Below, piece after piece: positions 1,314-63,340 of a stretch of DNA of 64,000 nucleotides (positions are counted from its first letter, which is position 1; each line of letters begins with the position of its first letter). This DNA comes from a virus (taxonomy: Duplodnaviria > Caudoviricetes). The DNA is taken from IMG/VR virus record IMGVR_UViG_3300028888_000002; one strand, written 5' to 3'. The translations under genes and the position numbers were made by a program. The notes below the pieces were generated by a model. It saw only the letters and a list, made by a program, of their open reading frames with translations. It ran no database searches and was not told the origin of the DNA.

Positions 1314-1337
1314 ATTATCCTCGGTTTTGTCGGTTAA

Positions 1338-7257: not shown

Positions 7258-7281
7258 TGTGCTATCCTCGGTTTAGGGTTA

Positions 7282-9587: not shown

Positions 9588-10222
9588 TGTGCTTTCCTTT
9601 GTTGAGCAAGCAACGACCTAAATGGCTTCCAACTTAATTCACCCCCATTAGCTTTATATTGCTTATAGGCTTCTAAATCCCTGTGAATACTTGCGGTTGC
9701 TTTTTTAGTCATAGCTTTACGGTATTCTGTATTAGTCCCCCACAGACGCTTAATAACTTCTGCGTGTTCCTCACGCTTTTCAGCAGTCCATATCCGTTCT
9801 TGTGCATTATGCAGCTTACTATGGAACTCTTTTGTAGCCCGTATAGCTGCACAGGCTTCTTTAACGTGCAGGGTATGTTCGGGCGATTGCTTTACGCCTG
9901 TCTTTGCTTCGCTAATGTGCTGTCGGTGTTCTACCGTAAATTCGGGGACGTGCCCTTTCCCCCATAAGGTTTGTTTATACTTATCGGATAAATCCCTTGT
10001 AGAGTGCGTTCGGTTATGCTCCCGCCCGTTCATAAATACCAACTCACACGCAGGTCTGTTATAGAGTAACCCTAATTCCATAAGGTCCTTACGGGATAAA
10101 CCCATATCTTCAAACCTATGGTGAATATGGTATTTTTCTAAAGATTCCGTCGCTTCTTTAAACCCTTGAATAGTATCAATAGGCTCACAACAGTAAGCTA
10201 CCGCTTGCTTCTTGCTAAACAT
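9584..10222 (-). CDS. free-standing HNH homing endonuclease with NUMOD3-like repeats
   Basis: YHIHHR..LYNRPACELVFM...EHNRTH core; TVEHRQHISEAKTG and QSPEH motifs; AT-richer than flanks. Confidence 0.8.
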   Translation of the reverse strand: MFSKKQAVAYCCEPIDTIQGFKEATESLEKYHIHHRFEDMGLSRKDLMELGLLYNRPACELVFMNGREHNRTHSTRDLSDKYKQTLWGKGHVPEFTVEHRQHISEAKTGVKQSPEHTLHVKEACAAIRATKEFHSKLHNAQERIWTAEKREEHAEVIKRLWGTNTEYRKAMTKKATASIHRDLEAYKQYKANGGELSWKPFRSLLAQQRKAQ

Positions 10223-10224
10223 AA

Positions 10225-10320
10225 AAAGCCACCTCCAATTTGTTGGGGTTATTTACGCCCCGACGATGCATCAAATCGGAGGGGCTGTTTTTAATATAGC
10301 AACATTGCAACATTCTAGCA
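10225..10320 (-). promoter_or_regulatory. promoter and RBS-sequestering leader hairpin of HNH gene
   Basis: TTGCTA-N17-TATATT, then AGCCCCTCCGATTTG...CAAATTGGAGGTGGCT stem burying the GGAGG SD just before the ATG. Confidence 0.65.
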
Positions 10321-10331
10321 ATTACCGAAGT

Positions 10332-12555: not shown

Positions 12556-12870
12556 TTAAATCTTTTCGTGTTCAATGCGGTAGATTTCGGCTTCCACCTT
12601 TTCCATATAGGTGTCCGTGACTTCGCCAACGGTTACGTCCTTAATGCCCGCAAACGCAGCTTCAAGAGCAGTCTTGCATAAGGCTGCAACTTCGGCAGAC
12701 TTGAAAGCGTAGGTTGCGTGATACCTGCTGCAAAAACCGCCATTGTAGCAGAACTTTGCGTCAGCGAACTTCTTTGCGATACGCCCCACTTTGGAAGCGT
12801 AATTGATAATGTAGGTGACGCTAACCGTAAACGGGTAGGTCTGCAATGTTTGGTAGTCGGCAGTAATCAT
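12556..12870 (-). CDS. hypothetical early protein
   Basis: First gene after strong promoter; leader GACAACCAC..AACCGAGG; start MITADY. Confidence 0.7.
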   Translation of the reverse strand: MITADYQTLQTYPFTVSVTYIINYASKVGRIAKKFADAKFCYNGGFCSRYHATYAFKSAEVAALCKTALEAAFAGIKDVTVGEVTDTYMEKVEAEIYRIEHEKI

Positions 12871-12914
12871 TTTGGAAGCCTCGGTTAAAGTGGTTGTCTT
12901 TCCTTTACACCCTA

Positions 12915-12958
12915 AATATAACAAAATACCTGTGTGGTGTCAACAGGTATTGTTAAAA
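12915..12958 (-). promoter_or_regulatory. sigma70-type promoter with inverted-repeat operator
   Basis: TTGACA-N17-TATATT; AATACCTG..CAGGTATT flanks the -35. Confidence 0.8.
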
Positions 12959-12977
12959 ATGATATGTTAAATTTAGT

Positions 12978-13694
12978 TTACACTACTTCAAAATCACGGG
13001 GCTTGTTCCGTATCGGGAAGTCGTGTTCACGGATTAGGTCCACGTAGGTCTGCAAGGACTCACGGTAGTCCTGGTGTTGGTCGGAGTCGCCACCTACTTT
13101 ACCGTTGAGCAGAGTTTCATTAGTCATAGCTACGCACAAATGCAGGTGTTCGCATTCAAGACCGAGGAATTGGTCTTCGCTGCCCCACTTGTTGAAGCGT
13201 GGCTCAAACAGGAACCCGTGGTTGTATGCCATTACGTCCTGTATCGCACCCACACGCATACAGAACCCGCAGGAATAGAACGGGTTGCACAACGTCCCTG
13301 TGTCCACGACCGTGGCACCGCTCAAAGGGACGAAAATCTTTTGGTGCCGTGCGTCGTGTTCGCAGGAATACAGCATACAATCAATGCTGTATGTCCGCAT
13401 AAGGTTTAGGACCTTTTCGGGGTTGTATTCCGTCGGGTAGCGGTCCCCGTCAAAGAACTCAACGTAGTCGTTGTAATCGGGCGAAAATTCCCGTAGAATA
13501 AACTGCAAGCCCGTGTTACGGTTCATTCCCCTATGACCTGCCGACGGCATAAGGACATAGCGACAGCCCAGGGCTTCGCATTCCTTAATGTCTTCGGCAG
13601 TCGGAGCGTCAAACACGAACACGGTATGGTCGTCGTGCGGGAACTTTCGGATATTTTCCGTTTGGTTATGGGATAGAATTACACGATAGAGCAT
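12978..13694 (-). CDS. glycosyltransferase (GT-A/GT2-like)
   Basis: VFVFD, RGMNRNTGL, FFDGD DxD motif, FEPRFNKWGSEDQ. Confidence 0.7.
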   Translation of the reverse strand: MLYRVILSHNQTENIRKFPHDDHTVFVFDAPTAEDIKECEALGCRYVLMPSAGHRGMNRNTGLQFILREFSPDYNDYVEFFDGDRYPTEYNPEKVLNLMRTYSIDCMLYSCEHDARHQKIFVPLSGATVVDTGTLCNPFYSCGFCMRVGAIQDVMAYNHGFLFEPRFNKWGSEDQFLGLECEHLHLCVAMTNETLLNGKVGGDSDQHQDYRESLQTYVDLIREHDFPIRNKPRDFEVV

Positions 13695-23319: not shown

Positions 23320-23584
23320 TAGTCACCCCCATTTGCTTATACAGAACTGCGTAAATCGTCCCTTCAACCGCAGAGTGTTCGCCCAAGATACGTGTAGCGA
23401 CACACTTCTTACCCGACGTAGTTTCGTAAACAGAAACGTAGTAGAGGCAAGTAATACCTGCTTTACCCTTTTTGGTAGTGAACGACCTGCCGTCAATCGT
23501 GAACTCAAAAATTCCGTTGGCATCGTCGCATTTCGTCATAACGATATTCTTGTAGAACCAATCGTTAAATTCGTTCCTATTCAT
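23312..23584 (-). CDS. hypothetical early protein
   Basis: First gene after operator promoter; leader GACAACCACTTCAACCGAGGATAGC. Confidence 0.7.
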   Translation of the reverse strand: MNRNEFNDWFYKNIVMTKCDDANGIFEFTIDGRSFTTKKGKAGITCLYYVSVYETTSGKKCVATRILGEHSAVEGTIYAVLYKQMGVTNV

Positions 23585-23628
23585 TTTGCTATCCTCGGTT
23601 GAAGTGGTTGTCTTCTCTTTACGTCTAT

Positions 23629-23670
23629 AATATAACAAATTACCTGCTCTTTGTAAACAGGTAATTTAAA
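23629..23670 (-). promoter_or_regulatory. sigma70-type promoter with inverted-repeat operator
   Basis: TTTACA-N17-TATATT; AAATTACCTG..CAGGTAATTT. Confidence 0.75.
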
Positions 23671-23681
23671 ATTTTTTAAAA

Positions 23682-24914
23682 TTATTTACGCAGGGCTGCG
23701 TATTCGTCGGGATAGGCTTTCTGTATCGCTTCTTCGGTAATCGTGTAGGTCTTAATCCCGTCGGCAGCATATACCTCGTTCAAGCGGGTCGCTGCGTCGG
23801 GATAAAGTTTCATAAGCACGTCTAGCTTCGTGTTGGGGTCTTCGCCATAGAGAGTAGCCAACCGCATAACGCCACACTTCATTTGCAGGTCGTAAAGTTC
23901 TGCACGGGTGAGTTTCTTCGGCTTCTGTTCTTTGGGGACGACCACGGCAGTTTCGTCGTGGGAGCCATCAGCAGCAGCGTCAAGGTGGACGCTTGACACC
24001 TGTTCAGCGGTAATAACGGGCTTACCCGTTTCTTCCACGACCTGCTTTGCTTCTTCCACGTTCTCAACCACGGGAAGTTCCTGGGGTTCTGCGGGCTTCA
24101 CTTCAAGCACGGTATCGTGGTCTTCAAGGAACCTCACGGATTCGGAAGCGTCCACGGTTTCGGGTTCTGCGGGCTTCGCCTTAATTTGCAGGTCAATATG
24201 GTCCACGGCATTGGTGGCAACCGCTTGAACGTCCACAGTAAGCGTCCCGTCTTCGGACAGGTCCTTGATTTCCTTGCTGACAACCTGCATTTCGGGGTGA
24301 ACCAGGGTGGTTACGGTTTCTGCTGTTTCCAGGACGCTTTCCTTGACATCTTCGGGAATGTCTGCGACGCTTACGGGTTCCTTTGGCGGGTAGTTCTCAT
24401 AAGACGGTGCCAGGGCTTCCAGGCATTCGGCTTCGTTCTTGATTAGCCCGCTAGGTATCGGGTCAAGAACACCCAGGGTTTCGTCCACAATCGGGGCTTC
24501 GGGTTCTTCCTGCGGTTCGGCTATCGGCTGTGCAATCGGTGGACCTGGGGGGATAGAGGTCTGCACACAGTCGGGACCCGCCAACAGGCAATCGCAGGTG
24601 TCCTGTTCCTTTTGTGACGGCTCCACCGTTTCTGCCTGCTTTTCGCAAACTTCGTCGGAGCCGAGGACATTGTTCAAGGCTTCCATAAGTTCTTCAAACG
24701 TAGTGCCCGTGAACGGCTTGTAAAGCACCATAATGTTGGTGAGTTCCAACATACCGTTATCGGCTTTCTTTTCGTCGTAGCAAAGCCCAAAGACAGGGTA
24801 TTCCCTGTGTTTAATCTTGCTGCCGTCTTCGGCAACCGTGCCCTTAACGTCAGCCTTGTAGTTGGCACGGGCAAAGTAGCGAAGGTCTTTGGATTGTTTC
24901 TTCGTAATGAGCAT
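23682..24914 (-). CDS. acidic, Pro/Glu-rich hypothetical protein
   Basis: Long ORF with disordered middle, KPAEP repeated. Confidence 0.7.
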   Translation of the reverse strand: MLITKKQSKDLRYFARANYKADVKGTVAEDGSKIKHREYPVFGLCYDEKKADNGMLELTNIMVLYKPFTGTTFEELMEALNNVLGSDEVCEKQAETVEPSQKEQDTCDCLLAGPDCVQTSIPPGPPIAQPIAEPQEEPEAPIVDETLGVLDPIPSGLIKNEAECLEALAPSYENYPPKEPVSVADIPEDVKESVLETAETVTTLVHPEMQVVSKEIKDLSEDGTLTVDVQAVATNAVDHIDLQIKAKPAEPETVDASESVRFLEDHDTVLEVKPAEPQELPVVENVEEAKQVVEETGKPVITAEQVSSVHLDAAADGSHDETAVVVPKEQKPKKLTRAELYDLQMKCGVMRLATLYGEDPNTKLDVLMKLYPDAATRLNEVYAADGIKTYTITEEAIQKAYPDEYAALRK

Positions 24915-27636: not shown

Positions 27637-27960
27637 TTAGATATGGTTTTCCTTGACGAAAGTGCTGCTAGAGTAAATGGACGAAGCGATTGTGTTCACT
27701 GCGGTCAAGAGCGTGTCCTTGTCGTCAAGCTGTGCAGGAACCTTGAAATCCAGGATAGCCGTTCCGTTGACGGGACAATCGCTCAAATCCACGGGAACAC
27801 CGTTAGCCCTAAAGGAATGTGCAGTGAAACTCCAAACGCCTGCAAAAATGTCATAGCTTGCGTCAATGTAGAAAGCTGCGTTACGCTTCGTCGCCTTTGC
27901 GAACCACTGCTTGACCTGCTTTCCGTTACGGGTATATTTGAGAATTGTTTCTACTGCCAT
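27637..27960 (-). CDS. hypothetical early protein
   Basis: First gene after operator promoter, start MAVETI. Confidence 0.7.
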   Translation of the reverse strand: MAVETILKYTRNGKQVKQWFAKATKRNAAFYIDASYDIFAGVWSFTAHSFRANGVPVDLSDCPVNGTAILDFKVPAQLDDKDTLLTAVNTIASSIYSSSTFVKENHI

Positions 27961-27997
27961 TGGGCTATCCTCGGTTATTGGTTGTCTTTCTGCGTAT

Positions 27998-28042
27998 AAT
28001 ATAACAAAATACCTGCCGTTCGTCAACAGGTATTGTTAAAAT
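27998..28042 (-). promoter_or_regulatory. sigma70-type promoter with inverted-repeat operator
   Basis: TTGACG-N17-TATATT; AATACCTG..CAGGTATT. Confidence 0.8.
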
Positions 28043-28059
28043 AATATGTTATATTTTTA

Positions 28060-29385
28060 TTACATACAGCAAATGTCTTGCCGTGTGAGCGGGCGACCGC
28101 AGACGGGGCAGGCTACGCCCTCAAGGTCGCTGTATGCGTCGTCCAGGTAGTCGTTGCAATCCGAAATATCCTCTACGGCACCCCTGTAATTATGGATTGA
28201 GCGGGATAGTGCCGAAAGTTCCCTGTCGGACCACTTGCACGGCTTCGGGGCTTTCAGCTTCGCAATTTTCCCCAGGGCGGTATCGGCAACGTCCAGGGTT
28301 TCAGTGACTTCTTCGTAGTTACGGATAGACTGCACTAGCGGACGCAGGCGACCTTCCCATTTGCACGGCTTCGGTTCCTGCAAGTCTTCCAGGGCGTTCA
28401 AAGCGGACCTGCACCGACGATAGCGGGTCACGACGGAGCCATACTGCGTGATAGAATCCGAAAGGGCTACAAGTTCCTTTTCCGTATGCTTCGGGGGCTT
28501 CGGGAACACCAGGGCACCCAACTTTTCAAGGGCGGGCGTTACACGGGCGAGAACACGGCAGGTCCCGACGTAGTTGTTGCAGACTTCAAGTTCCTTTTCC
28601 AATCCCTTGATTACTGCGGACTTGTCCCCGTTCTCAAGCCATTCGGGGATTTCGGGGTAGTTCTTGATAGCCTTGTAATCGTCAATCGTGCGTTTGAGTG
28701 CTTCCAACTTGCGGGTGAGTTCGTCAATCTTCGGCTGCGTAGCCTTTGCCTTTTCGTAAAGGTCTTCGGCTTTTTCCACCCAACTGAATGACCCCACGGA
28801 CTTTTCAAGACCCTCAACCGTTTCCTGTGCGGTGTTCACCAGGTCCGACGTGTCGGAAACCTTACGCTTTGCAAGCGTAAGAATATCGTCAACGCATTCA
28901 AGCCCCGCAAGTTCGTTCAAGTATTTGGACGCTTCGCCTGGTGTAGCTGCGAGCAGGAACGGTGCGTCAAACTGCTTCTGCACGGAAGCGTCTGCCAGGT
29001 TGAACAGCTTCGTGACGGCTTCGGGCACGTCGGTTCGGAGTGCTTCGTAAACCGTGTCGTCCACAATGTAGCCGTTAAAGGTGTTGGACCGCTTGCGTTC
29101 TACTACGTGACCGTCCACCACTATCGTCACGGACGTATATTCGTCGTCCTTGAACTTAATAGTGCTGCTTTCCTTTGTCGTCGGTTTCTTGCTAGGCTTC
29201 GTCTGCTTCTGTGCCCAATACGATACGAAGTCGTGCGGGGCTTCGTTGAAAAGGACCCAATAGAACGCACGTAGCACGGCTGTCTTGCCGTGGTTGGAAC
29301 CACCCTGCAAAACGGTGGAACGCCCCAGGTCCAATTCAAGGTCCTTGTGGCATTGGAAATTGTGCAATTTAATCTTTGTTATCAT
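28060..29385 (-). CDS. Rad50/SbcC-like ATPase, N-terminal half
   Basis: IKLHNFQCH, Walker A GGSNHGKT, Q-loop QKQFD, coiled coil, ends at zinc hook CPVCG; no signature or Walker B. Confidence 0.85.
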   Translation of the reverse strand: MITKIKLHNFQCHKDLELDLGRSTVLQGGSNHGKTAVLRAFYWVLFNEAPHDFVSYWAQKQTKPSKKPTTKESSTIKFKDDEYTSVTIVVDGHVVERKRSNTFNGYIVDDTVYEALRTDVPEAVTKLFNLADASVQKQFDAPFLLAATPGEASKYLNELAGLECVDDILTLAKRKVSDTSDLVNTAQETVEGLEKSVGSFSWVEKAEDLYEKAKATQPKIDELTRKLEALKRTIDDYKAIKNYPEIPEWLENGDKSAVIKGLEKELEVCNNYVGTCRVLARVTPALEKLGALVFPKPPKHTEKELVALSDSITQYGSVVTRYRRCRSALNALEDLQEPKPCKWEGRLRPLVQSIRNYEEVTETLDVADTALGKIAKLKAPKPCKWSDRELSALSRSIHNYRGAVEDISDCNDYLDDAYSDLEGVACPVCGRPLTRQDICCM

Positions 29386-29702: not shown

Positions 29703-30338
29703 TCACTTAATGAGTTCCTTCGGCAAAAGGCGTTCCCTGGTTTCGGGGTAGCGACAAATCAAGTAGCCACGGAGCATAGCGTAATAGACCTTGTAAAGAC
29801 CCTGTGCAGGACCGTAAATGTGCGTATCAATTTGGAAGAACGCACTCAAGAACGGCAGCAGCGGATTGTCTGCGTAACGCTTGACGGGTAAATCCTTCGT
29901 GTATTCGTCCATACACGGGAACATCACCAACGGACGTTCCGTTATAGCGACAACGCAAATGGGGGTTTTCTTATAGGCGTAGGTAAACTTCGTTACGCTT
30001 TTCAGCTTCTCAACGTTTTCAGTCAAGCCCAAACTCTTTGTAAGGCTGCGGGCGAAGTCTGCCAAGAAATTGAACTGTTCCTCGGAGCAGTCCATAAGGC
30101 TTTCAAGAATGCCCTGGGGCTTTTTATTACGCAAGCGTTCAAGCAGGCACTTGCCCAACTTCGTGACCTTGTAACCCCACGGGTCCGTTTCTTTCTTTGC
30201 GGGCTGTGCCTTGTCTTCAATATCCTTGCGACGCTTTACGCTCTTTTCAAGAGTCTTGCGACGTTCTGCAATCCTTTCAAAGACAGCCTTGTATTTAGGC
30301 TTTTCGTCTTTTACGGGTTTCTGTTTTTTGGTAGCCAT
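29703..30338 (-). CDS. hypothetical protein
   Basis: 211 aa, AAAACCGAGGA RBS, basic N-terminus. Confidence 0.7.
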   Translation of the reverse strand: MATKKQKPVKDEKPKYKAVFERIAERRKTLEKSVKRRKDIEDKAQPAKKETDPWGYKVTKLGKCLLERLRNKKPQGILESLMDCSEEQFNFLADFARSLTKSLGLTENVEKLKSVTKFTYAYKKTPICVVAITERPLVMFPCMDEYTKDLPVKRYADNPLLPFLSAFFQIDTHIYGPAQGLYKVYYAMLRGYLICRYPETRERLLPKELIK

Positions 30339-30555
30339 TTCGTTTCCTCGGTTTTTGTGAAAAGTTGTATGAATAAGTTTGTCCGTTGTCGGACAAGCAG
30401 CCTGCCGTAACGTCCAGGCATTGAAAGGTCCGTGAAACTTCGTCGTCCACCTGGGGTTCTACAAGTTTACGGAGTTCCGTTTCGGACAAGGTGCTGCTGT
30501 TCGCAGACACCTTAACCGTCACGGTGTAAGTCTTTTCAAAGACCAATTTAGCCAT
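30295..30555 (-). CDS. hypothetical protein
   Basis: Start MAKLVF. Confidence 0.5.
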   Translation of the reverse strand: MAKLVFEKTYTVTVKVSANSSTLSETELRKLVEPQVDDEVSRTFQCLDVTAGCLSDNGQTYSYNFSQKPRKRNGYQKTETRKRRKA

Positions 30556-33146: not shown

Positions 33147-33215
33147 AAAAAAGCCCCGCCCATTTCCCGCACTTTAGACAACCACGACCGAGGATTGGGA
33201 AAAATTGGGCGGGGC
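33147..33215 (-). terminator. terminator-like hairpin with large loop antisense to early-gene leaders
   Basis: GCCCCGCCCAATTTTTCCC / GGGAAATGGGCGGGGC followed by T-run; loop AATCCTCGGTCGTGGTTGTCT. Confidence 0.75.
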
Positions 33216-33223
33216 AAAATTCC

Positions 33224-33787
33224 TTAAAGGTTATTCAACCGTTTGCTAATCCGTGTTAGAGCTATCTTTGCACACATCAAGGCGTTCTTATATCCTTCGT
33301 CGGTAAGGATTTCATAAGCCTGGTAGTTGTGCCCGTCTAGGTGGGTCCTAAACTTGCCGTCACGGACGCAGGTTGAAGATAAGGGGTATGCCAACTTTAC
33401 AGGTATGACACAACCAATCTTCCCGTCTTCATTAAATTTAGCAAATAATCCGTCAACGCACAAGGTATTGTGTTCGCCATTGTCGTATATTCCGACGTTT
33501 TCCACGAAAACAATGCCGTCCGATATGCTGTTGTTAAGGTGGAATGCCTTCTTGCAAAGCTGCTCACGCAGTTCACGGACCCTGCTTTCCCAGGTCGGCT
33601 CAATGCAGGTAGCACTTACAATGACCTGCTGAAGTTCATTGACTATCTTTGAAGCGGTTGCAAGCGTGTAACGCTTGCCCTGGAACTTACGCAGGACTTT
33701 CGGGAGTTCCGCAGAAAGATACTGTTCGCACGTAGGCTGTTTAGGCTTGTTCGGAGCCTTCCTACCTTTTATTAGTCTAGCCCGCAT
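33224..33787 (-). CDS. hypothetical protein
   Basis: 187 aa coupled ORF. Confidence 0.65.
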   Translation of the reverse strand: MRARLIKGRKAPNKPKQPTCEQYLSAELPKVLRKFQGKRYTLATASKIVNELQQVIVSATCIEPTWESRVRELREQLCKKAFHLNNSISDGIVFVENVGIYDNGEHNTLCVDGLFAKFNEDGKIGCVIPVKLAYPLSSTCVRDGKFRTHLDGHNYQAYEILTDEGYKNALMCAKIALTRISKRLNNL

Positions 33788-34463: not shown

Positions 34464-34500
34464 ACACTTAATCCTCGGTTGAATGGTTCAACGTAAGAAT

Positions 34501-34600
34501 AATATAACTAATTACCATACCGCAGTCAACAGGCGTTGTTAAAATTTTTGTTTACATTTTACTTACGCTATTGCTAAACATTGGATATTTTGTTATATTG
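34501..34600. promoter_or_regulatory. divergent promoter pair at strand switch
   Basis: Minus: TTGACT-N17-TATATT with degenerate operator; plus: TTGCTA-N17-TATATT. Confidence 0.75.
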
Positions 34601-43359: not shown

Positions 43360-43379
43360 TAAAAATCGTAAGAAATTAT

Positions 43380-43422
43380 TTTAACAATACCTGTTGACAT
43401 TCAGCAGGTATTTTATTATATT
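43380..43422 (+). promoter_or_regulatory. sigma70-type promoter with inverted-repeat operator
   Basis: TTGACA-N17-TATATT; AATACCTG..CAGGTATT. Confidence 0.8.
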
Positions 43423-43453
43423 GTAGGTGTAACCACAACCGAGGATAGCCCCA

Positions 43454-44659: not shown

Positions 44660-44704
44660 AGCCAAATTGGAGCCTAGTTGCTATATTACTCTTACACGTG
44701 ATTC

Positions 44705-44780
44705 GTCGGTGCTGCCGTCTAACGCATCAGTCCTAGCGGAAGACGGCAGTCACCGACACCTTGAAGTTTTATAGGACTGA
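44705..44780 (+). promoter_or_regulatory. leader hairpin/pseudoknot over RBS
   Basis: 16-bp stem 44705-44720/44741-44757; apical loop TCAGTCCTA (44727-35) complementary to TAGGACTGA (44772-80). Confidence 0.7.
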
Positions 44781-44785
44781 CCCCA

Positions 44786-45652
44786 ATGACCGAACCTACA
44801 ACCACGAACCGAACAACTAGAAAAGGTTACGACCCTACCGAAGAATGGCTATCAGTTGCAGAATCCCTTGAAGTTTACCTAGAAGAAGCAGCACAGCCAT
44901 CCGCCCGATACGAATACAAGCCCGACGGCATTAAGCGAATACCATTCACGAACAAGCAGTGGATTAGCTTCACGGGGACAGAAACACCCCCAGGTTCGGG
45001 TTTGGTGTGGCTGAAACCTGGGAACCATTACAGGGCAAAGGACAGGCTAATCCACGTAATACCCTACAAGTATTACAGGGGCTTTGAATGGCGAATTATT
45101 TGGTGTATGGTCCGTAACACCCTGCTTTGCAAGCAGTTAGCGTCCGTGTATGTCCGTCTTGAAGCCGTAAAGGACACAATCGCCTTCTACCTTAAAGACT
45201 ACACGGACTGCCCCCTAAACCTCATTGAGCGGGTATCAAGTGCAATCGGGTTTACGGCTATGACTATAATAGACTCCCATTCGGAATGCACAGCCGAAGA
45301 CCTGGCAGGCATTGAAAGCAAGTATGCGACTACAAGGGGAGCGGTTGACTATGAATGCCGTCAAGACCTGTGGAAAATGCTTAAAAACCACGGAATTGGG
45401 TCATTGAGAACCCGAAAGCAACAGGAAGCATTGATTGACAAGGTTCTAACCCTCCCGAAATTCGCCCATTTGAGCAACAACACGAAGACATCGCTTCTGT
45501 TTAGATTAAGGCGAAACCACCTGCTGAAACCCGACACCGACAAGATTAAAGACAGGGTTTCGGATATAAAACTGAAACAATTAAGCAATATACCGCTTAC
45601 AGCCTCGGACCGCCAATACGTCCACCGACACAAGGATTTATTCATTATTTAA
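44786..45652 (+). CDS. hypothetical basic protein, candidate replication initiator
   Basis: 288 aa; immediately upstream of repeat-rich non-coding region; function inferred. Confidence 0.5.
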   Translation: MTEPTTTNRTTRKGYDPTEEWLSVAESLEVYLEEAAQPSARYEYKPDGIKRIPFTNKQWISFTGTETPPGSGLVWLKPGNHYRAKDRLIHVIPYKYYRGFEWRIIWCMVRNTLLCKQLASVYVRLEAVKDTIAFYLKDYTDCPLNLIERVSSAIGFTAMTIIDSHSECTAEDLAGIESKYATTRGAVDYECRQDLWKMLKNHGIGSLRTRKQQEALIDKVLTLPKFAHLSNNTKTSLLFRLRRNHLLKPDTDKIKDRVSDIKLKQLSNIPLTASDRQYVHRHKDLFII

Positions 45653-45654
45653 GC

Positions 45655-46060
45655 TAGAATCCCCGAATAATTCGGGGATTACTTTGTATGCGAAAACGTG
45701 ACATTTTTTTATTCCGTATAGGATATAAGGCTACCATACCGAGAAAAAAAATGTCACGCTAGAATCCAGGATAAAAGCTGTGGGCACGAAATGTTCGCTT
45801 CGCTCACATTATCGTGCCTATCACGCCCTTACGGGCGTGATGGTAGAGAAGATTTGGATTTACAGGTCTTTAAGGCAGGTGAAGTTCCTGGCTCCGTGAA
45901 AGGTGAGCCAAAGGGGGGAGCAAAGCGACCCCCGACGTGAACCTTTCCGAGTAGGGAATATGGGTGGTGGTTTGGGTTGGGTGAAAATTGTGTGAAAATG
46001 AGTGTCAAGAGCGGGGAGTAGCAAAAGGACCGTATGCGTGAGTTTAAAAATGTTACTATG
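45655..46060. other. putative replication origin (non-coding, multiple inverted repeats)
   Basis: AATCCCCGAA palindrome, CGTGACATTTTTTT/AAAAAAATGTCACG IR, hairpins with TTCGCTTCGCTC and GAGCAAAGCGA loops, G/T-rich tract. Confidence 0.55.
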
Positions 46061-46147
46061 TAACAGATTATTTGTTATATTTCCCTACAAGAGCGACAGC
46101 CACGCATATAGCCCCGACCCTTACGGGGTAAAAGGAAGGTTACACTT

Positions 46148-47950
46148 ATGGCTGAAAGCGGACTTGCAGGATTAAGCACGGCAGACTTGTATAAGGCTGC
46201 TGCAATAGCCGAGGGCTATGAATCCGTCCCTGTTGACATTGAAACGTTCATTAACGACCCGTTCTACATTGGCGAAATCTACGGTGAGGGTCGTGTCTAT
46301 CCCTATTGGTTGGACAAGCTGAAAAAGCTGTTCCCGAACCCGCTTTACAGCCCGTTCATTGAAGTCTGCATTACGGGGTGTATCGGTGCGGGTAAGTCCA
46401 CGGTGTCCATTATCGGGGTCCTTTATGACCTGTATAGGGTGACGCTGCTGAAAGACCCGCACAAGAAATTCAAGCTAATACCGACCACGCCTATCGTGAT
46501 TACGCTCATTACCGCAACTATGGACCTGGCGGGTGCCGTCCTTGCGGACCAACTTATAGACGTTATTGGCTGCTCCCCGTATTTCCGTTCAAAGCTGCTT
46601 CCAGGCAAGGGCGACAAGATAGATGAAGAAATGTTTCCCCACCACGTAGGTATCGCCTACGGTTCCCGTATGCGTCACTCTTTGGGCAAGGCTGTCATTG
46701 GGGCTATCATTGACGAAGCGAACTTCCAAAACGCAGTAGCGGACCAGGCGGTGCAGAACTACAACAGCATCCGTCGTCGTATGTTTTCCCGTTTTATGAC
46801 TAAAGGCGGTGAAGTGCCCTGCCGTATGTGGGTCGTGTCGTCCCGAAACGAAAGCACGTCGTTCCTTGAAAGCCATATTGACGCAGAACGCAACAACCCG
46901 AAAGTCGCTATCTTTGAGCCTGCCATTTGGGAAGTCCAGGCACACAAGGGTATTTACAGCGGGGCGACCTTCCCCGTCTTTATCGGTTCCGACATTGAGC
47001 AGCCGAAAGTCATTACAAGCGACGCAGAACTTGACGACTACCAGGGTCGTGTTATCCAGGTCCCCGTTGAATACCGAAAGGACTTTGAGAACAATTTGCC
47101 TGGTGCCTTGCAGGATTTGGCGGGCGTGGCTACCCGTAACGGTGTGAACCTAATCTACAACGTGGAAGCCCTGGATAGGTCAATGTGCCTGGAAAACTGT
47201 ATGACTACGGACGAACTGCACTTGACCTTGAACGACAACGACCAAATCGCTGACTTCTACAAGGGGAACCTTCCGAAAGGCAAGTATTACGTCCATTTGG
47301 ACGGTGGCTTGCGTAGCGACCGTTTCGGCTTCGCTATGAGCCGTGTCACGGAGCAGATAACGGTCACGACCACTTCTGCCGTTAGCGGTGTGGAAGTGAG
47401 CAAGATTAGCCCCGCAGTAGAAACCCCGCTTGTGTTCGGTATCAAGGCGTTGCCAGGGTCCGAAGTCCCGTTTTGGAAGGTCCGTGTGTTCCTGGTTTAC
47501 CTGCGTAGCCAGGGCGTGAACATAGCCTTGATTACGTGCGACGGCTACCAATCTGCCGATATGATGCAGCTACTCACGAAGTTGGGATTTAACGTGAAAT
47601 ACGCTTCTGTGGATAAGACCAAAGACCCGTATTTGAAGTTGAGCAGCAACATTCTTTTGAGTTTGATTAAAATGGCGAAGTCCCGTATTTTGAGGACCGA
47701 ACTAATCAACCTGCAAAACCTACCGAAGAAGATAGACCACCCTGCTACAATCGTCGTGGACGGGAAGCAGGTTGCGGGTGGCAAGGATATTGCGGACGCT
47801 GTGGCTTCTAGTTCCTACGAAGCTATCTGTGCTTCTATGACCCTGGGTGCGTCGTCGCTGCTCCAAATGCAGCAGTCAAAGCCTACCCAAATGACTATGC
47901 ACCAACGCCAGGAATACGTTATGGAACACTTTTTTAAAATGAAAAGGTAG
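46148..47950 (+). CDS. terL: terminase large subunit
   Basis: YPYW, Walker A TGCIGAGKST, Walker B IIDEANF, nuclease YVHLDG, ITCDGYQS, KIDHP..KDIADAV. Confidence 0.92.
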   Translation: MAESGLAGLSTADLYKAAAIAEGYESVPVDIETFINDPFYIGEIYGEGRVYPYWLDKLKKLFPNPLYSPFIEVCITGCIGAGKSTVSIIGVLYDLYRVTLLKDPHKKFKLIPTTPIVITLITATMDLAGAVLADQLIDVIGCSPYFRSKLLPGKGDKIDEEMFPHHVGIAYGSRMRHSLGKAVIGAIIDEANFQNAVADQAVQNYNSIRRRMFSRFMTKGGEVPCRMWVVSSRNESTSFLESHIDAERNNPKVAIFEPAIWEVQAHKGIYSGATFPVFIGSDIEQPKVITSDAELDDYQGRVIQVPVEYRKDFENNLPGALQDLAGVATRNGVNLIYNVEALDRSMCLENCMTTDELHLTLNDNDQIADFYKGNLPKGKYYVHLDGGLRSDRFGFAMSRVTEQITVTTTSAVSGVEVSKISPAVETPLVFGIKALPGSEVPFWKVRVFLVYLRSQGVNIALITCDGYQSADMMQLLTKLGFNVKYASVDKTKDPYLKLSSNILLSLIKMAKSRILRTELINLQNLPKKIDHPATIVVDGKQVAGGKDIADAVASSSYEAICASMTLGASSLLQMQQSKPTQMTMHQRQEYVMEHFFKMKR

Positions 47951-56760: not shown

Positions 56761-57990
56761 ATCATCAAGACTACACGGGCAGAATGAGTGTCCCTGTCCA
56801 TAGTATAACCACAACCGCACTTGTAGGTTCTATCCGCAAGCGTGGGATGGTTTATACATCCACAGGCAGGACACATCTTTGTGGTTGGTTCCCATTTGGA
56901 AATTTTGAAACTGCGACCGCTCGCTTCCAATGCGACAAGTCGCTGCTTCAATGACCCAAGACAGGATGATTGAACCTGTTTTCCAAACAAGCCCTTCTGC
57001 CACCCCTTAATCTGCTCGTCTTGAAAGTAAATTACATCATAGTCGGTCGTTAATTTGTGGTATATCTTGTTGGCGAAGTCTTTTCGTCTATTTGCCAATC
57101 TTTCATACTCACGCCTTAATTGACTCATACACCTGTAATACCGCTTTGACTTCTTCTTGTTCTTCTCAACTCCACGCTTGTTCAGTTTGCGTGACAGAAA
57201 TTTTAGATAGTCAATTTCTCGCACATCACATTTGTATTTGTCACCGTATGACGTTGTTATGGAATCCTTTATGCCGAAATCAAGACCAACGTTCTTGTGG
57301 GTAGGAATCCTTTTGGATTTCGGCAGCATAACGCTAACTTTTAAGTAATAGCCACTAGCCTTACGAACAAGTTTAGCGTCTGCTATTTCAAACTTCTCAA
57401 ACTGCTGTAATTGGTCAAGTCCGTGAACACGTAGTTTGCGGAATCCTGGAATTGTAATCCTGCACCCGTCCAGGATTTGTGTGTAGCCCGTAATGATAGG
57501 CAGGCAATTAACTTCGGATTTGAATTTTAATGCCCCGACCTTGATACCCTTCTTCTTGGCTTTTGCAAGGTTCACAATGTCTGTTCTCTTTTGGGCGACT
57601 GTCGCCCTGTGGAGAACGGACGGGAGTGAAATAGTGTCTGTTATCGGGTTCTTGTCCTTGTCGTAGTGAACTACGTTCTTATGTTCCGTGTATTTGTAAT
57701 CAAACAGGGAGATGTCTTTGCTCTTGTTGGAGAGCGATAACATATCGTTCACGACCCACTTTGCTTCCTTGAAGCATTGGGCTAACTTCGTAAATACTTC
57801 TTTCGGGTTATGCCGTATGGAAACCTTGAGTTCAAAGACACGGCAAACCTGTGTTTGCCGTCTAGCCCTTGTTTCGGAAATGGACTCCCGAATCCTGGCT
57901 TTAGTGTCTTCGCTTCTTACTGTTTCCATAGATTTGACTTAAACGGACATTTCTCAATATCTAACTCAAATATAGATTATTTTGTGGCAT
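56618..57990 (-). mobile_element. tnpB-only (IS1341-like) element, left end approximate
   Basis: Opposite orientation to flanks; right end hairpin TTTAAGC..GCTTAAA followed by TAGTTCAC; no tnpA. Confidence 0.65.
56643..57929 (-). CDS. tnpB: TnpB RNA-guided endonuclease (IS200/IS605-type)
   Basis: RuvC-I VGLDFGIK, RuvC-II YFQDE, TTKMCPACG..CGCG Zn finger, RuvC-III MDRDTHSA. Confidence 0.92.
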   Translation of the reverse strand: METVRSEDTKARIRESISETRARRQTQVCRVFELKVSIRHNPKEVFTKLAQCFKEAKWVVNDMLSLSNKSKDISLFDYKYTEHKNVVHYDKDKNPITDTISLPSVLHRATVAQKRTDIVNLAKAKKKGIKVGALKFKSEVNCLPIITGYTQILDGCRITIPGFRKLRVHGLDQLQQFEKFEIADAKLVRKASGYYLKVSVMLPKSKRIPTHKNVGLDFGIKDSITTSYGDKYKCDVREIDYLKFLSRKLNKRGVEKNKKKSKRYYRCMSQLRREYERLANRRKDFANKIYHKLTTDYDVIYFQDEQIKGWQKGLFGKQVQSSCLGSLKQRLVALEASGRSFKISKWEPTTKMCPACGCINHPTLADRTYKCGCGYTMDRDTHSARVVLMIGSSKRAVCLEQATVEGVATMPASDSGTHANPLMRKQSI

Positions 57991-58186
57991 AAAAGAAGCT
58001 ATTTATTGCTTATATTCTGCTAGAGGGTCTAGCACATACCCTAAAGAGGACGTGTCTGCAACAGGATATATGCCATTTTATAAATATATAACAGATAATC
58101 TATTGCAAATAGGGCGGTATTATGTTATATTTGTAGTGCGACAACCACGTAATTTGATTCTTTTATAAAGATAAAGGATTGGTGGT

Positions 58187-59581: not shown

Positions 59582-60091
59582 GTGCATCGTATATACATTG
59601 GCATTGACAATGGCACGTCGGGAACTATCGGTTGGCTTGGCGACGGCATTGAAACGGGTTTCGCTGAAACCCCTAAATTTGTAGAACAGTCCTACACGAA
59701 GGCTGCGAAGAATATCAGCCGTATTAAGCGTTCCGCTTTGCGTGAATTGGTCTTGAAGATTTTGGGCGATAATCAGCCGTGCGAAGCAATCGCAGTCCTG
59801 GAACGTCCCCGTGTGAACCCGAAGCAGTTTGTCACGACGCTTTCGGCTATGCGGGCGTTGGAAGCGACGCTTTGTGTTTTGGAAGACCTGGGTGTTCCGC
59901 TTACCTATACGGACTCCCGTCCGTGGCAGAAGAAAATGTTGCCCCAGGGCATAAAGGGTTCTGCCGAACTCAAGAAAGCCTCAAAGGAAATCGGTTGCAG
60001 ACTTTATCCGCAGTTTGCGGACGCTATCCGTAAGCATAAGGACGCAGACGGTTTGCTTATTGCTGAATGGGCTAGTAGGGAGCGTCTATGA
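59582..60091 (+). CDS. RuvC-like Holliday junction resolvase
   Basis: YIGIDNG..G, VLE, PWQK, DADGLLIAE. Confidence 0.8.
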   Translation: MHRIYIGIDNGTSGTIGWLGDGIETGFAETPKFVEQSYTKAAKNISRIKRSALRELVLKILGDNQPCEAIAVLERPRVNPKQFVTTLSAMRALEATLCVLEDLGVPLTYTDSRPWQKKMLPQGIKGSAELKKASKEIGCRLYPQFADAIRKHKDADGLLIAEWASRERL

Positions 60092-61059
60092 GTAGTATAA
60101 TTGAGCAGCAGGATTTGGTGGCAACCCCTGTTGACATTGAAACGTTCGTAAAGGACCCGCAGTATCTAGGGAATATCGTTGGCGATGGTATTTACCCGTA
60201 TTGGTTGGAGCAGTTCAAGAAAATCTATGCTGCCTCCGATGGTTCTCCGTTCTTTTTGTCGGAGTATAGCGAAGTCCTGTTTGCGGGTGCTTTGGGGGCG
60301 GGCAGAAGTTTTGCTGCTATCGTAGGGTTCCTGTATGAACTCTATATCCTTACGCTTGTAAAGGACCCCCACAAGAAATGGACCCTGCTGCCGACTACAC
60401 CGATTGATTTGGTGGTCATTACTGCGGACGCAAGCAACACGCTTCTTTCCGACCGTATCTTGGACTGCATTAACGTTTCCCCGTATTTCAAGTCTATTTT
60501 GCTGCCGAATAAGGGTTCTGCTCTTGAATCCAATATGTTCCCGAATCACGCAGGTCTTGCTGTTGTTGCTAACAATCGGTTCTTGTTGGGACGTGCTATT
60601 TTCGGTGCTATCGTGGATGATAGTTGCTTCCCGCAGGAAAAACCACTGTGCGATTTATGGTTTAAGAATATATCCGAACTATACACTTGTTCGTGGCGAC
60701 GTGGGTTTTCCAGGTTTGGCTGTGCAGGGACTACACCGCTTCGTATGTGGGTAGCTGTGGCTTCAAGTTCTCCCTTGTATGCCCTGGTTGATGAACGTAG
60801 AAAACGTGGCTATGGCATATACTATGTTTCTCCGTCTATTTGGGAAGCACAGGCGTTTAAGGGTGTCTATTGCGGTGATACGTTCTCCGTGTTTGTCGGT
60901 TCCGATACGGAACCCCCGAAGATTGTCACGGATATAAACGACCTTGTGAAATATAAGGACAAGATTATCCAGGTCCCTGTTGAATATCACCAGGATTTTG
61001 AAAAGAATATCCGTGATGCTGTTCAAGAATTGGCGGGCATCCCTGTCGCAAAGTTTTAA
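60088..61059 (+). CDS. truncated terminase paralogue (ATPase domain only, degenerate motifs)
   Basis: Shares PVDIETF, YPYWL, KDPHKK..PTTPI, SPYF.S.LLP, MFP.H, IWE.QA.KG.Y.G.TF.VF.GSD, IQVPVEY..DFE.N with TerL; ends before nuclease domain. Confidence 0.85.
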   Translation: MSSIIEQQDLVATPVDIETFVKDPQYLGNIVGDGIYPYWLEQFKKIYAASDGSPFFLSEYSEVLFAGALGAGRSFAAIVGFLYELYILTLVKDPHKKWTLLPTTPIDLVVITADASNTLLSDRILDCINVSPYFKSILLPNKGSALESNMFPNHAGLAVVANNRFLLGRAIFGAIVDDSCFPQEKPLCDLWFKNISELYTCSWRRGFSRFGCAGTTPLRMWVAVASSSPLYALVDERRKRGYGIYYVSPSIWEAQAFKGVYCGDTFSVFVGSDTEPPKIVTDINDLVKYKDKIIQVPVEYHQDFEKNIRDAVQELAGIPVAKF

Positions 61060-61100
61060 TCACAAAAACCGCTGTGCATTACAGCAAAGGAAACACTAAA

Positions 61101-61703
61101 ATGGCTACTAAAAAAGTCGCACCGAAAACCGAAACCAAAACTGCTCCGAAGAAGGAAGTCAAGTCTGCTGCCCCGAAAAAGGAAGGGAAGACCGCTCCGA
61201 AGAAAGAAGTCAAGGTAGCTCCGAAGAAGGAAGTCAAGTCCGAAATTCCGACTACTTCTGCCCCGAAGATTATGGCTAAAATGGTTCCTGCAAAGAAGAC
61301 CGCTCCGAAGCAGGACCAGGACTACGTTGTTCTTGAACACGACCTGCTTACGAAGAATTACACGATGATTATTCACGAAGCAAATTTCAAGTTCAATGCC
61401 CCGCACCATTTTAAGGTTATCGCAGCACAGCCCGACACTGACGGTGAACACAAGGGACAGAACCGTGTCGTTGGTATCGTGAACTTCCAGGAAGGTCCGA
61501 TTAAGGAAAACGGTGTGAACGGTGTTGCCAACGAAGACTTGCTTGGTATGGTTCTTTGCCGTTTGGAAGGCTTCCAAAACAGCGAATACAAGTGCCGTGA
61601 AAACGCCCTTGCTATTACGAAGATTGAAGAAGCCCTTATGTGGCTCCGCAAGAGAACTAACGCCCGTGTGAAGCGTGGTGTTGAAGGCACGTCAAAGGTT
61701 TAA
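61101..61703 (+). CDS. Tad1-family anti-Thoeris/CBASS sponge with APKK-repeat N-terminal tail
   Basis: FQEGP.KE.GVNGV..EDLL..V..RL..FQ....CRENA.A.T..EEALMW...R...R..RGV.GT. Confidence 0.8.
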   Translation: MATKKVAPKTETKTAPKKEVKSAAPKKEGKTAPKKEVKVAPKKEVKSEIPTTSAPKIMAKMVPAKKTAPKQDQDYVVLEHDLLTKNYTMIIHEANFKFNAPHHFKVIAAQPDTDGEHKGQNRVVGIVNFQEGPIKENGVNGVANEDLLGMVLCRLEGFQNSEYKCRENALAITKIEEALMWLRKRTNARVKRGVEGTSKV

Positions 61704-61719
61704 TTGGGGGAAATGCAAA

Positions 61720-62013
61720 ATGGCTAAAAAGAAGACCGTGAAGACTGCTCCCGTAAAGAGTCTTGCAGAAGTTATCGTTGACCTTGAACTTGAATTTGAC
61801 GAAATCGCAGGGAGGGTTGAAAAGATTGACGCTTCGTTGGACGATGACGACTTCTGTGATAGAATTGGTATTGAACATACTAACTTGCTTATTCAGCAAC
61901 GCAACGCTATGTTGGAATATCGTGACAAGTTGGGCATTCGCCTAGCCTTGCTCCGTCGTGCGAACGCAAAGGCTGTAGAAGCCGAAATTAAGGAAAAGGC
62001 GGTTAAGGCTTAA
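61720..62013 (+). CDS. T4 Y16Q / crAss001_48-like helical protein
   Basis: E.DE...R..K....L....F......LL..Q..AM..Y...L..R pattern. Confidence 0.65.
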   Translation: MAKKKTVKTAPVKSLAEVIVDLELEFDEIAGRVEKIDASLDDDDFCDRIGIEHTNLLIQQRNAMLEYRDKLGIRLALLRRANAKAVEAEIKEKAVKA

Positions 62014-62866: not shown

Positions 62867-63153
62867 ACGCATACGCTAACAAGCTGCTTGCAAGAGCCGA
62901 GGGAATTTGGCACAATCTAGGGTTGGCACTTCAAGAGAAGAAATCCCTTGAACACGACGGCTACACGTCCATATCGCTCTATTTTGACCGTATCACACCC
63001 GCCCAGGCTGAAATGCTTGTTTCTCAAATGAGCAAGGCTTTCCGCAGGGCTAACGTGTATTGGAAAGAAGACGAGCGTGGGACGAAGATTTGTGTTGAAA
63101 TCCCGCCTATGGGTTCGGGGACCCCCGTTCCTATGAAACGCAGTTGCAGGTAG
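62863..63153 (+). CDS. hypothetical protein
   Basis: 96 aa. Confidence 0.6.
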   Translation: MNAYANKLLARAEGIWHNLGLALQEKKSLEHDGYTSISLYFDRITPAQAEMLVSQMSKAFRRANVYWKEDERGTKICVEIPPMGSGTPVPMKRSCR

Positions 63154-63174
63154 TAACCACTTTGTTTATATTTT

Positions 63175-63311
63175 GGGAGCAGGACGGTTTGTAGCCATTC
63201 CGTCTTGTTACTTCCATAAGGGTGGAATAGCCCTACGTCGCTACTTTGGTAGCAGGCTCATTGGCGTGGGGCGGGGCAGCGTAGTTCTCGGTTTTCTACG
63301 CTGCCTTTTTC
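63175..63311 (+). ncRNA. candidate four-hairpin small RNA
   Basis: Own promoter TTGCAG-N17-TATATT (63144-63172), four consecutive stems, terminal GGCAGCGTAG/CTACGCTGCC + T-run; no ORF. Confidence 0.65.
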
Positions 63312-63340
63312 TTGACAGCCACCAGGTAATTTGTTATATT
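63312..63340 (+). promoter_or_regulatory. thyX promoter with operator half-site
   Basis: TTGACA-N17-TATATT containing CAGGTAAT. Confidence 0.7.

Follow-up and report, generated by a model that had tools for sequence, protein, structure and literature searches.

The DNA analysed here is a stretch of 64,000 bp (hereafter the window) from a tailed virus of the Caudoviricetes (IMG/VR record IMGVR_UViG_3300028888_000002), with a guanine-cytosine content of 48.8% and forming part of a large phage genome. Close to its right end lies a predicted non-coding RNA of ~133 nucleotides (nt), composed of four hairpins (H1 to H4), the last of which is an intrinsic terminator (63179..63311, + strand). Upstream of it are, in order, genes for an Acb2/Tad1-family protein, a crAss001_48 protein (labelled Sequestin in contig annotations), a DUF5662 protein, and proteins of 44 and 96 amino acids (aa); thyX lies downstream.

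The RNA is preceded by a predicted promoter (63144..63172, +) with a -35-like TTGCAG (63144-63149), a 17 nt spacer and a -10 TATATT (63167-63172), placing the probable start near 63179. The weak -35 is not conserved, and the -10 box, TA(T/C)ATT, is the sole promoter part kept; it is present upstream of all 17 homologues checked, alleles with rebuilt upstream DNA included. H1 (63179..63208, +) displays the loop UUUGUAGCCAUU (63188-63199), the 3' part of which, AGCCAUU, is the complement of an AAUGGCU start context. H2 (63212..63227, +) is small and variable, and H3 (63230..63272, +) has a 9 nt 3' bulge, AGGCUCAUU (63254-63262), containing GCUCAUU and the YUNR motif CUCA; the bulge, not the terminal loop, carries the motif. 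The H4 terminator (63273..63311, +) consists of a hairpin (63273-63305) with the loop UUCUCGGUUUU (63285-63295), which includes YCUCGGUU, and a U5 tail to 63310. The folding z-score for 63179-63311 is -6.45, reached by none of 200 shuffles, and the + strand out-folds its complement in 17/17 homologues tested; a minus-strand decoy was rejected, as the minus strand folds worse and is without promoter and U tail. Opening the seeds costs 2.6 kcal/mol in H1, 0.05 in H3 and 0.01 in H4. An earlier note on this DNA had described a stand-alone promoter, hairpin and terminator unit, and that description stands. A pattern scan of the window listed neither the promoter, in which the -35 matches at only 3/6 positions, nor the terminator, whose 11 nt loop is above the limit of the scan.

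Searches with the Rfam 15 covariance models (including C4, riboswitches and Fibrobacter motifs) gave no hits in the window at the gathering threshold, and in E-value mode the best hit (E=2.3) was to an unrelated lncRNA (long non-coding RNA). BLAST of the RNA against GenBank phages returned one chance 22-mer only, and no description was found in the literature, the supplements of a large viral RNA catalogue (PMC10690425) lying outside that search. Contigs from RNA libraries include the region; their depth is flat, DNA carry-over is possible, and ends, strand and level are not readable from contigs. It is almost certain that this is a conserved structured RNA, and apparently an undescribed one.

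With loop patterns and the protein of 96 aa encoded upstream as probes, nineteen distinct homologues were gathered, and column statistics were taken from a 13-sequence alignment. Across the three motifs AGCCAUU, GCUCAUU and CUCGGUU, 21/21 columns show no variation, compared with 11/74 paired and 6/38 other unpaired columns. The stems are rewritten around them: 89.6% of alignment cells pair and both sides are altered in 17/37 pairs, values met by 0-1 of 500 shuffles (slid controls at most 7), in a test biased in its favour by a reference structure derived from the window sequence. GCCAU and GCUCAUU are universal among all 19, and CUCGGU(U/A) is present in 17; L317 has U-to-A changes in its seeds. 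Two held-out homologues, found after model building, score 71 and 62 bits and retain the H1 and H3 motifs within new stems. In L029/31/32 and in L033/L070 the promoter and the H1 stem are wholly different and the loop core is unchanged; the H1 stem has been swapped independently in two lineages around one loop core, once next to a transposon insertion.

The covariance model finds a single copy of the RNA per phage, always behind the 96-aa open reading frame (ORF), and the gene downstream varies among homologues. Since it varies, and since thyX (start 63367) has a separate promoter in the window (63312..63340, +; pattern scan), the RNA is not a thyX cis leader or riboswitch in the window phage. 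No hit was obtained in 141 Fibrobacteraceae genomes, a search made without a positive control, or in five partial relatives, whose partial contigs cannot establish absence. A 14-bit model hit in contig G005 is an unrelated terminator, most loop-pattern matches are due to chance, and a 12 nt H1 match in G004 is not an RNA homologue. Insertions, mostly of the TnpB type, recur in or just upstream of the RNA (L033:5325-6730, L070, L040:717-1919 and L044), and L033/L070 have kept the loop core within a new H1 stem behind a new promoter. H2 tolerates a structured insertion of 196 nt (L032:5374-5569, also L029 and L031) containing GAUGGCUAU, a complement of the H1 loop; no Rfam family matches the insertion, and neither the other loci nor 101 Fibrobacter genomes contain a copy.

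The RNA is carried by a group of ~215 kb rumen phages whose host, judging from sequence similarities, is probably Fibrobacter. One relative, G002, is 215,686 bp long and 99% complete and contains no PF00589 (tyrosine) integrase, and the datasets that yielded the relatives are of rumen type (gut metagenome runs). The host assignment follows from the resemblance to Fibrobacter DNA of Fib_succ_major genes in the relatives (56-57% identity to Fibrobacter genomes) and of the TnpB-like and thyX genes of the window (73% and 66%); a search for CRISPR spacers gave no match. A search of 41 Fibrobacter genomes turned up no Hfq, in keeping with seeds presented in loops.

The H4 loop motif YCUCGGUU is complementary to a ribosome-binding site (RBS) of these phages, AACCGAGG, which we refer to as the tag. 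The tag is the rank-1 8-mer of initiation regions in the window (10/86), G002 (28/360) and contig G003 (12/126), and ranks 1-2 in three further contigs. G002 has 34 occurrences and none of a reversed control; the tag is absent from 293 host starts and at control level in five host genomes, and the host 16S end has a standard anti-Shine-Dalgarno sequence. Two more distant phages, neither of which gives a convincing model hit for the RNA, contain the tag once each. By these counts the tag is phage-specific. Copies in the window that are candidate H4 targets by sequence match lie at 1319..1326 (-), at eight further sites on the - strand (5' base at 7273, 12886, 23032, 23600, 27638, 27976, 30353 and 34480), and at 43437..43444 (+), in an early-promoter cassette before gene 43454. 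The sites at 1326 and 30353 are those for which the earlier note had claimed an antisense match, and eight are thus added.

Predicted H4 duplexes of -11.5 kcal/mol or stronger form at 9/86 initiation regions of the window (null 0.7), 30/360 of G002 (null 4.8) and 0/293 of the host, a count equalled by 0/150 null sets. A loose cut-off (-8) failed to separate H4 from shuffles where the strict one succeeded, because any U/G-rich loop pairs with purine-rich Shine-Dalgarno sequences. AACCGAG outranks every other permutation of its letters in the initiation regions of the window, and among 25 intergenic hairpins there only the H1 and H4 loops match top initiation-region 7-mers, so that complementarity exceeds chance, as the earlier note had required of it. 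Next to the H4 seed on its 5' side, only U or C occurs, which fits the G found at the target base in 55/59 sites. Structure, loop conservation, non-random complementarity and the phage specificity of the tag are all computed properties of these genomes.

The tag often terminates a repeated strong-promoter cassette and is also retained where the flanks diverge. The cassette, TTGACA ... TGTTATATT followed by ACAACCAC and AACCGAGG, is 60-90 nt long with about 20 copies in G002, and could drive modular gene shuffling; sequence repeats mark copies in the window at 12864-12980, 23578-23694, 27954-28063, 34499-34566 and 43362-43440. The tagged genes are of unknown function. A hydrophobic gene of 61-68 aa beside a putative lysin (L024:19757-19963, L030:8988, L039:12610 and L041:15608) retains an (A)CCGAGG RBS, often within the upstream frame, and is a possible lysis-timing target.

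The starts at 61101 and 30338 each pair with H1 over 9 nt, with a mismatch at position 10 in both; of the three starts named in the earlier note, the one at 62732 matches at AUGGCUA only. The first is that of the Acb2/Tad1-family gene (61100..61108, +), a candidate H1 target whose Sequestin-like (61720) and DUF5662 (62013) neighbours likewise start with AAUGGCU. AAUGGCU has rank 3 in the window and rank 56 in G002, and outranks 629/630 and 626/630 permutations of its letters in their initiation regions respectively. In Met-Ala families of the clade, A at -1 and GCU at codon 2 tend to occur together (20/39 versus 6/43, p=3e-4), an association absent in controls (p=0.43); by this measure the AAUGGCU context is selected in this clade and not in controls. 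Three families start with AAUGGCUAC, namely Tad1, the 211-aa gene at 30338 and a 51-aa gene, and the latter two also carry the AACCGAGG tag. In G002 and G154 the 51-aa gene combines the tag with a perfect 12 nt H1 match. In the 211-aa gene 29703-30338, RBS and start (30331..30353, -) match H4 and H1, as the earlier note had seen, and the same context occurs in two relatives, making this a candidate for double contact. A host site with H1 and H4 matches in many Fibrobacter genomes was rejected, as it lies inside a coding frame, and across 61 host genomes the two motifs together are no commoner than controls. A type I antitoxin was also rejected: complementarity to initiation regions reaches at best 9 nt in the window and 12 nt in G002, and there is no overlapping gene.

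The H3 motif GCUCAUU is invariant in 19/19 homologues. The earlier note had taken H3 for a further anti-AUG loop; the sequence match is real, but it lies in a bulge, and no gene of the window starts with AAUGAGC. AAUGAGC and the tag are combined only in a 36-aa ORF of G002 and one L041 gene. Both the H3 and H4 seeds start with YUNR motifs (CUCA and CUCG), which can expose the following bases for fast pairing (PMC6562991), and since YUNR presents the bases after it, H3 may read AAUG alone. Such reading fits the enrichment of AAUG[AG] among ACCGAG-tagged genes (36/76 versus 133/632; by families 20/46 versus 75/354, p=0.0013), the constant 23-25 nt between H3 and H4 seeds, the tag-to-AUG spacing of 8-10 nt and the antiparallel order. 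H2 was rejected as a fourth anti-AUG seed, its sequence not being conserved.

We propose that the RNA is an Hfq-independent trans-antisense RNA that pairs with initiation regions of the phage itself, and give this a probability of about 0.6. It has at the sequence level the attributes of a trans-acting small RNA (sRNA), being an intergenic unit with its own promoter and intrinsic terminator, independent of its flanks, with conserved accessible seeds against unlinked initiation regions in H4 and H1, though not in H3. In this scheme, whose discrete RNA, pairing, repression, timing and two-point binding we infer from sequence, host RNA polymerase would transcribe the RNA from a housekeeping-type -10 promoter, and stable hairpins would hold up 7 nt seeds in their loops. 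The H4 loop would pair with the phage-specific RBS AACCGAGG, which contains the Shine-Dalgarno GAGG, and the H1 loop, probably together with CAUU of the H3 bulge, with A-AUG-G/A start contexts, so that 30S loading is blocked through one or two contacts. The targets would be early-cassette genes of the phage itself, of which each genome has ~30, together with genes starting with AAUGGCU, among them those for Acb2/Tad1 and the Sequestin-like protein; as the stable RNA accumulates these would be shut off, so that ribosomes become free for later genes or a superinfecting relative is silenced. Its purpose is probably the shut-off of early and anti-defence genes; superinfection exclusion would have the same chemistry. 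The earlier note had envisaged an anti-initiation RNA acting on phage or host mRNAs; conservation, covariation and enrichment speak for phage mRNAs as targets of H1 and H4, but not for those of the host (0/293 for H4, with the double motif at control level), where target prediction had been suggested.

Several observations weigh against this proposal. The seeds are merely 7-9 nt long and hardly vary, so no loop-target covariation is demonstrable, and the variable 5' part of the H1 loop does not track the Tad1 start. The most invariant motif, that of H3, is without a target class, as AAUGAGC starts number 0/86 in the window and 2-3/360 in G002 and are not enriched. The anti-RBS loop has been lost in one lineage (L045 and L318), which has a plain terminator loop, and the RNA is missing at this position in the L027 and L011 loci. 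Gene starts were taken from our own simple gene caller. The term early derives from the strong consensus promoters, the usual sign of early genes, and a -10 box lies within 90 nt of only 5/10 and 19/31 tagged genes. Finally, the enrichment of -1 A and AAUG[AG] may come from shared descent of the cassette.

The proposal has to be set against four other explanations. The RNA could act in cis at the 3' end of the anti-defence operon that precedes it, as terminator and stabiliser of that operon, with H1 folding back on AAUGGCU starts of the same transcript and inhibiting them in a hok-like manner, as might be supposed from its fixed place behind the 96-aa ORF, from the three upstream genes starting with AAUGGCU and from the failure to find a terminator on the + strand between 61101 and the RNA. 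Yet the RNA's own -10 box is conserved and rebuilt after insertions, H4 targets lie elsewhere in the genome, and L034 keeps the RNA without Tad1 and Sequestin genes, leaving this quite improbable. That it is an ordinary terminator with extra hairpins and chance matches is very improbable indeed: the intrinsic terminator is normal and some relatives are without the RNA at the locus, but the invariance of loops within rewritten stems and the permutation tests speak otherwise, and the conservation pattern largely refutes it.

The main target could instead be host RNA, either mRNA starts or nascent 23S rRNA, given that a Fibrobacter 23S region (G010:C45:20247 and 19899, -) contains AACCGAGA and AAUGAGC, to which the H4 and H3 seeds respectively are perfectly complementary, that H3 is without a phage target and that a host uS15-like start pairs with H1. 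However, 22-32% of 7-mers are present in 16S+23S by chance, the CCUCGGUU and CUCGGUA variants pair better with the phage tag than with rRNA, and host initiation regions hold no H4 target; we regard a host target as improbable. Alternatively the loops could be protein-binding or decoy sites (a YCAUU or anticodon-like CAU sponge for a host RNA-binding protein or anti-phage nuclease) or make loop-loop contacts like those of phi29 pRNA. The H1 and H3 motifs share a CAUU end, a 4 bp H1-H3 contact is possible, and the locus lies among the Acb2/Tad1, Sequestin and Tad3 anti-defence genes. This too is unlikely, if slightly less so, as it leaves the rank-1 complementarity of H4 and the selection of AAUGGCU unexplained, and the H1-H3 contact drops to -2.4 kcal/mol in L045 and has no covariation support.

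The earlier note had suggested that the RNA and elements at 33.2 and 44.7 kb may form a single family of silencers, and this grouping falls: the model finds only this copy, the 33.2 kb element is not homologous to it, and the 44.7 kb element is likely to act in cis. The former is a hairpin and terminator (33147..33215, -) that terminates gene 33224-33787 and has a G002 counterpart at ~98690-98760 (-). Its 20 nt loop core (33176-33195) is antisense to the early leader, with cassette leaders as the best pairing partners, making it a second candidate anti-leader silencer, possibly 3'-UTR (untranslated region) derived. The core is common to five distinct sequences with differing stems, all found by the loop pattern itself, so that its invariance partly reflects how they were picked. 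In G002 and L238 the adjacent gene has a AACCGAGA RBS, a possible cis partner of the loop. The element at ~44678-44786 (+) has a promoter and a long hairpin with the conserved loop core CAUCAGUCCUAG, and is kept in G002 and G003. In the element's own leader, some 35 nt downstream, the Shine-Dalgarno region of gene 44786 holds a 9 nt complement of the loop, and the element is therefore more likely cis-acting, probably as a pseudoknot or translational switch. A wider proposal, to which we give somewhat less than even odds, is an RNA-only early shut-off circuit, in which the tag and the start codon of ~30 tagged genes would be read by the four-hairpin RNA and the 33.2 kb hairpin, two unrelated RNAs, through U-turn loops without Hfq. 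Such a circuit would set when early expression gives way to late and when anti-defence expression decays, or exclude superinfecting kin.

Other features of the window include the anti-defence cluster (61101-62013, and L024:17513-18304), with Tad3 further downstream in relatives, and the long N-terminal repeat rich in Lys, Pro and Ala of its Acb2/Tad1 gene. Two paralogous genes 13.9 kb apart (46148-47950 and 60088-61059) contain the repeat families D7, D8 and D10 and have no PHROG match, and long intergenic stretches with hairpins (45653-46147, 9588-10331 and 57930-58186) have no Rfam hit. If the proposed action is correct, it would tie RNA control to anti-defence genes and provide, for the major rumen cellulose degrader Fibrobacter, a compact repressor that needs no chaperone.

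The P1 C4 RNA is a phage multi-hairpin antisense RNA with short loop or bulge seeds, and the RNA described here resembles in this the phage P4 CI RNA (PMC4825925). P4 CI and P1 C4 are processed from the transcript that is controlled, have flanking sites and serve lysogeny, whereas the present RNA has its own promoter, many unlinked candidate targets and no Rfam match; with unlinked H4 targets and no PF00589 integrase in the 99% complete relative, it does not belong with them. PreS, VpdS, DicF and SviR are phage-related sRNAs that base-pair in trans with several targets, as proposed here, but SviR is from a satellite, and the other three depend on Hfq and stem from temperate phages (PMC12197685; 10.1101/2022.04.08.487710). 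In the parts of the review consulted, none of them recognises a tag common to a whole class of genes of its own phage (PMC12197685).

The closest functional likeness is to the anti-Shine-Dalgarno sRNAs LhrC of Listeria and RNAIII/RsaE of Staphylococcus, with C-rich loop seeds (PMC4132741, PMC2837412). Shared with LhrC and RNAIII are a size of ~110-135 nt (LhrC), several loop seeds including one in the terminator loop and, in the scheme proposed, independence from Hfq, two-point contact and a block of initiation. The phage RNA is without sequence or Rfam relation to them, has three different seeds that are neither UCCC nor redundant, and is apparently aimed at the extended RBS and start codons of its own genes, in phages without a tyrosine integrase; it would work alike without being of the LhrC/RsaE UCCC type. 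Early-gene switch-off in large lytic phages has been well worked out mainly for T4, where RegB inactivates early mRNAs class-wide via a shared Shine-Dalgarno motif and RegA acts at the AUG region (PMC3014915). Searches for RegA and RegB families in these phages gave no match, with controls equally without one, so that this result does not speak for their absence. The T4 readers are proteins and the reader here, which would do the same job, would be an RNA, and an RNA that reads a tag in the RBSs of a whole gene class would, if confirmed, be a new way to run the early switch.
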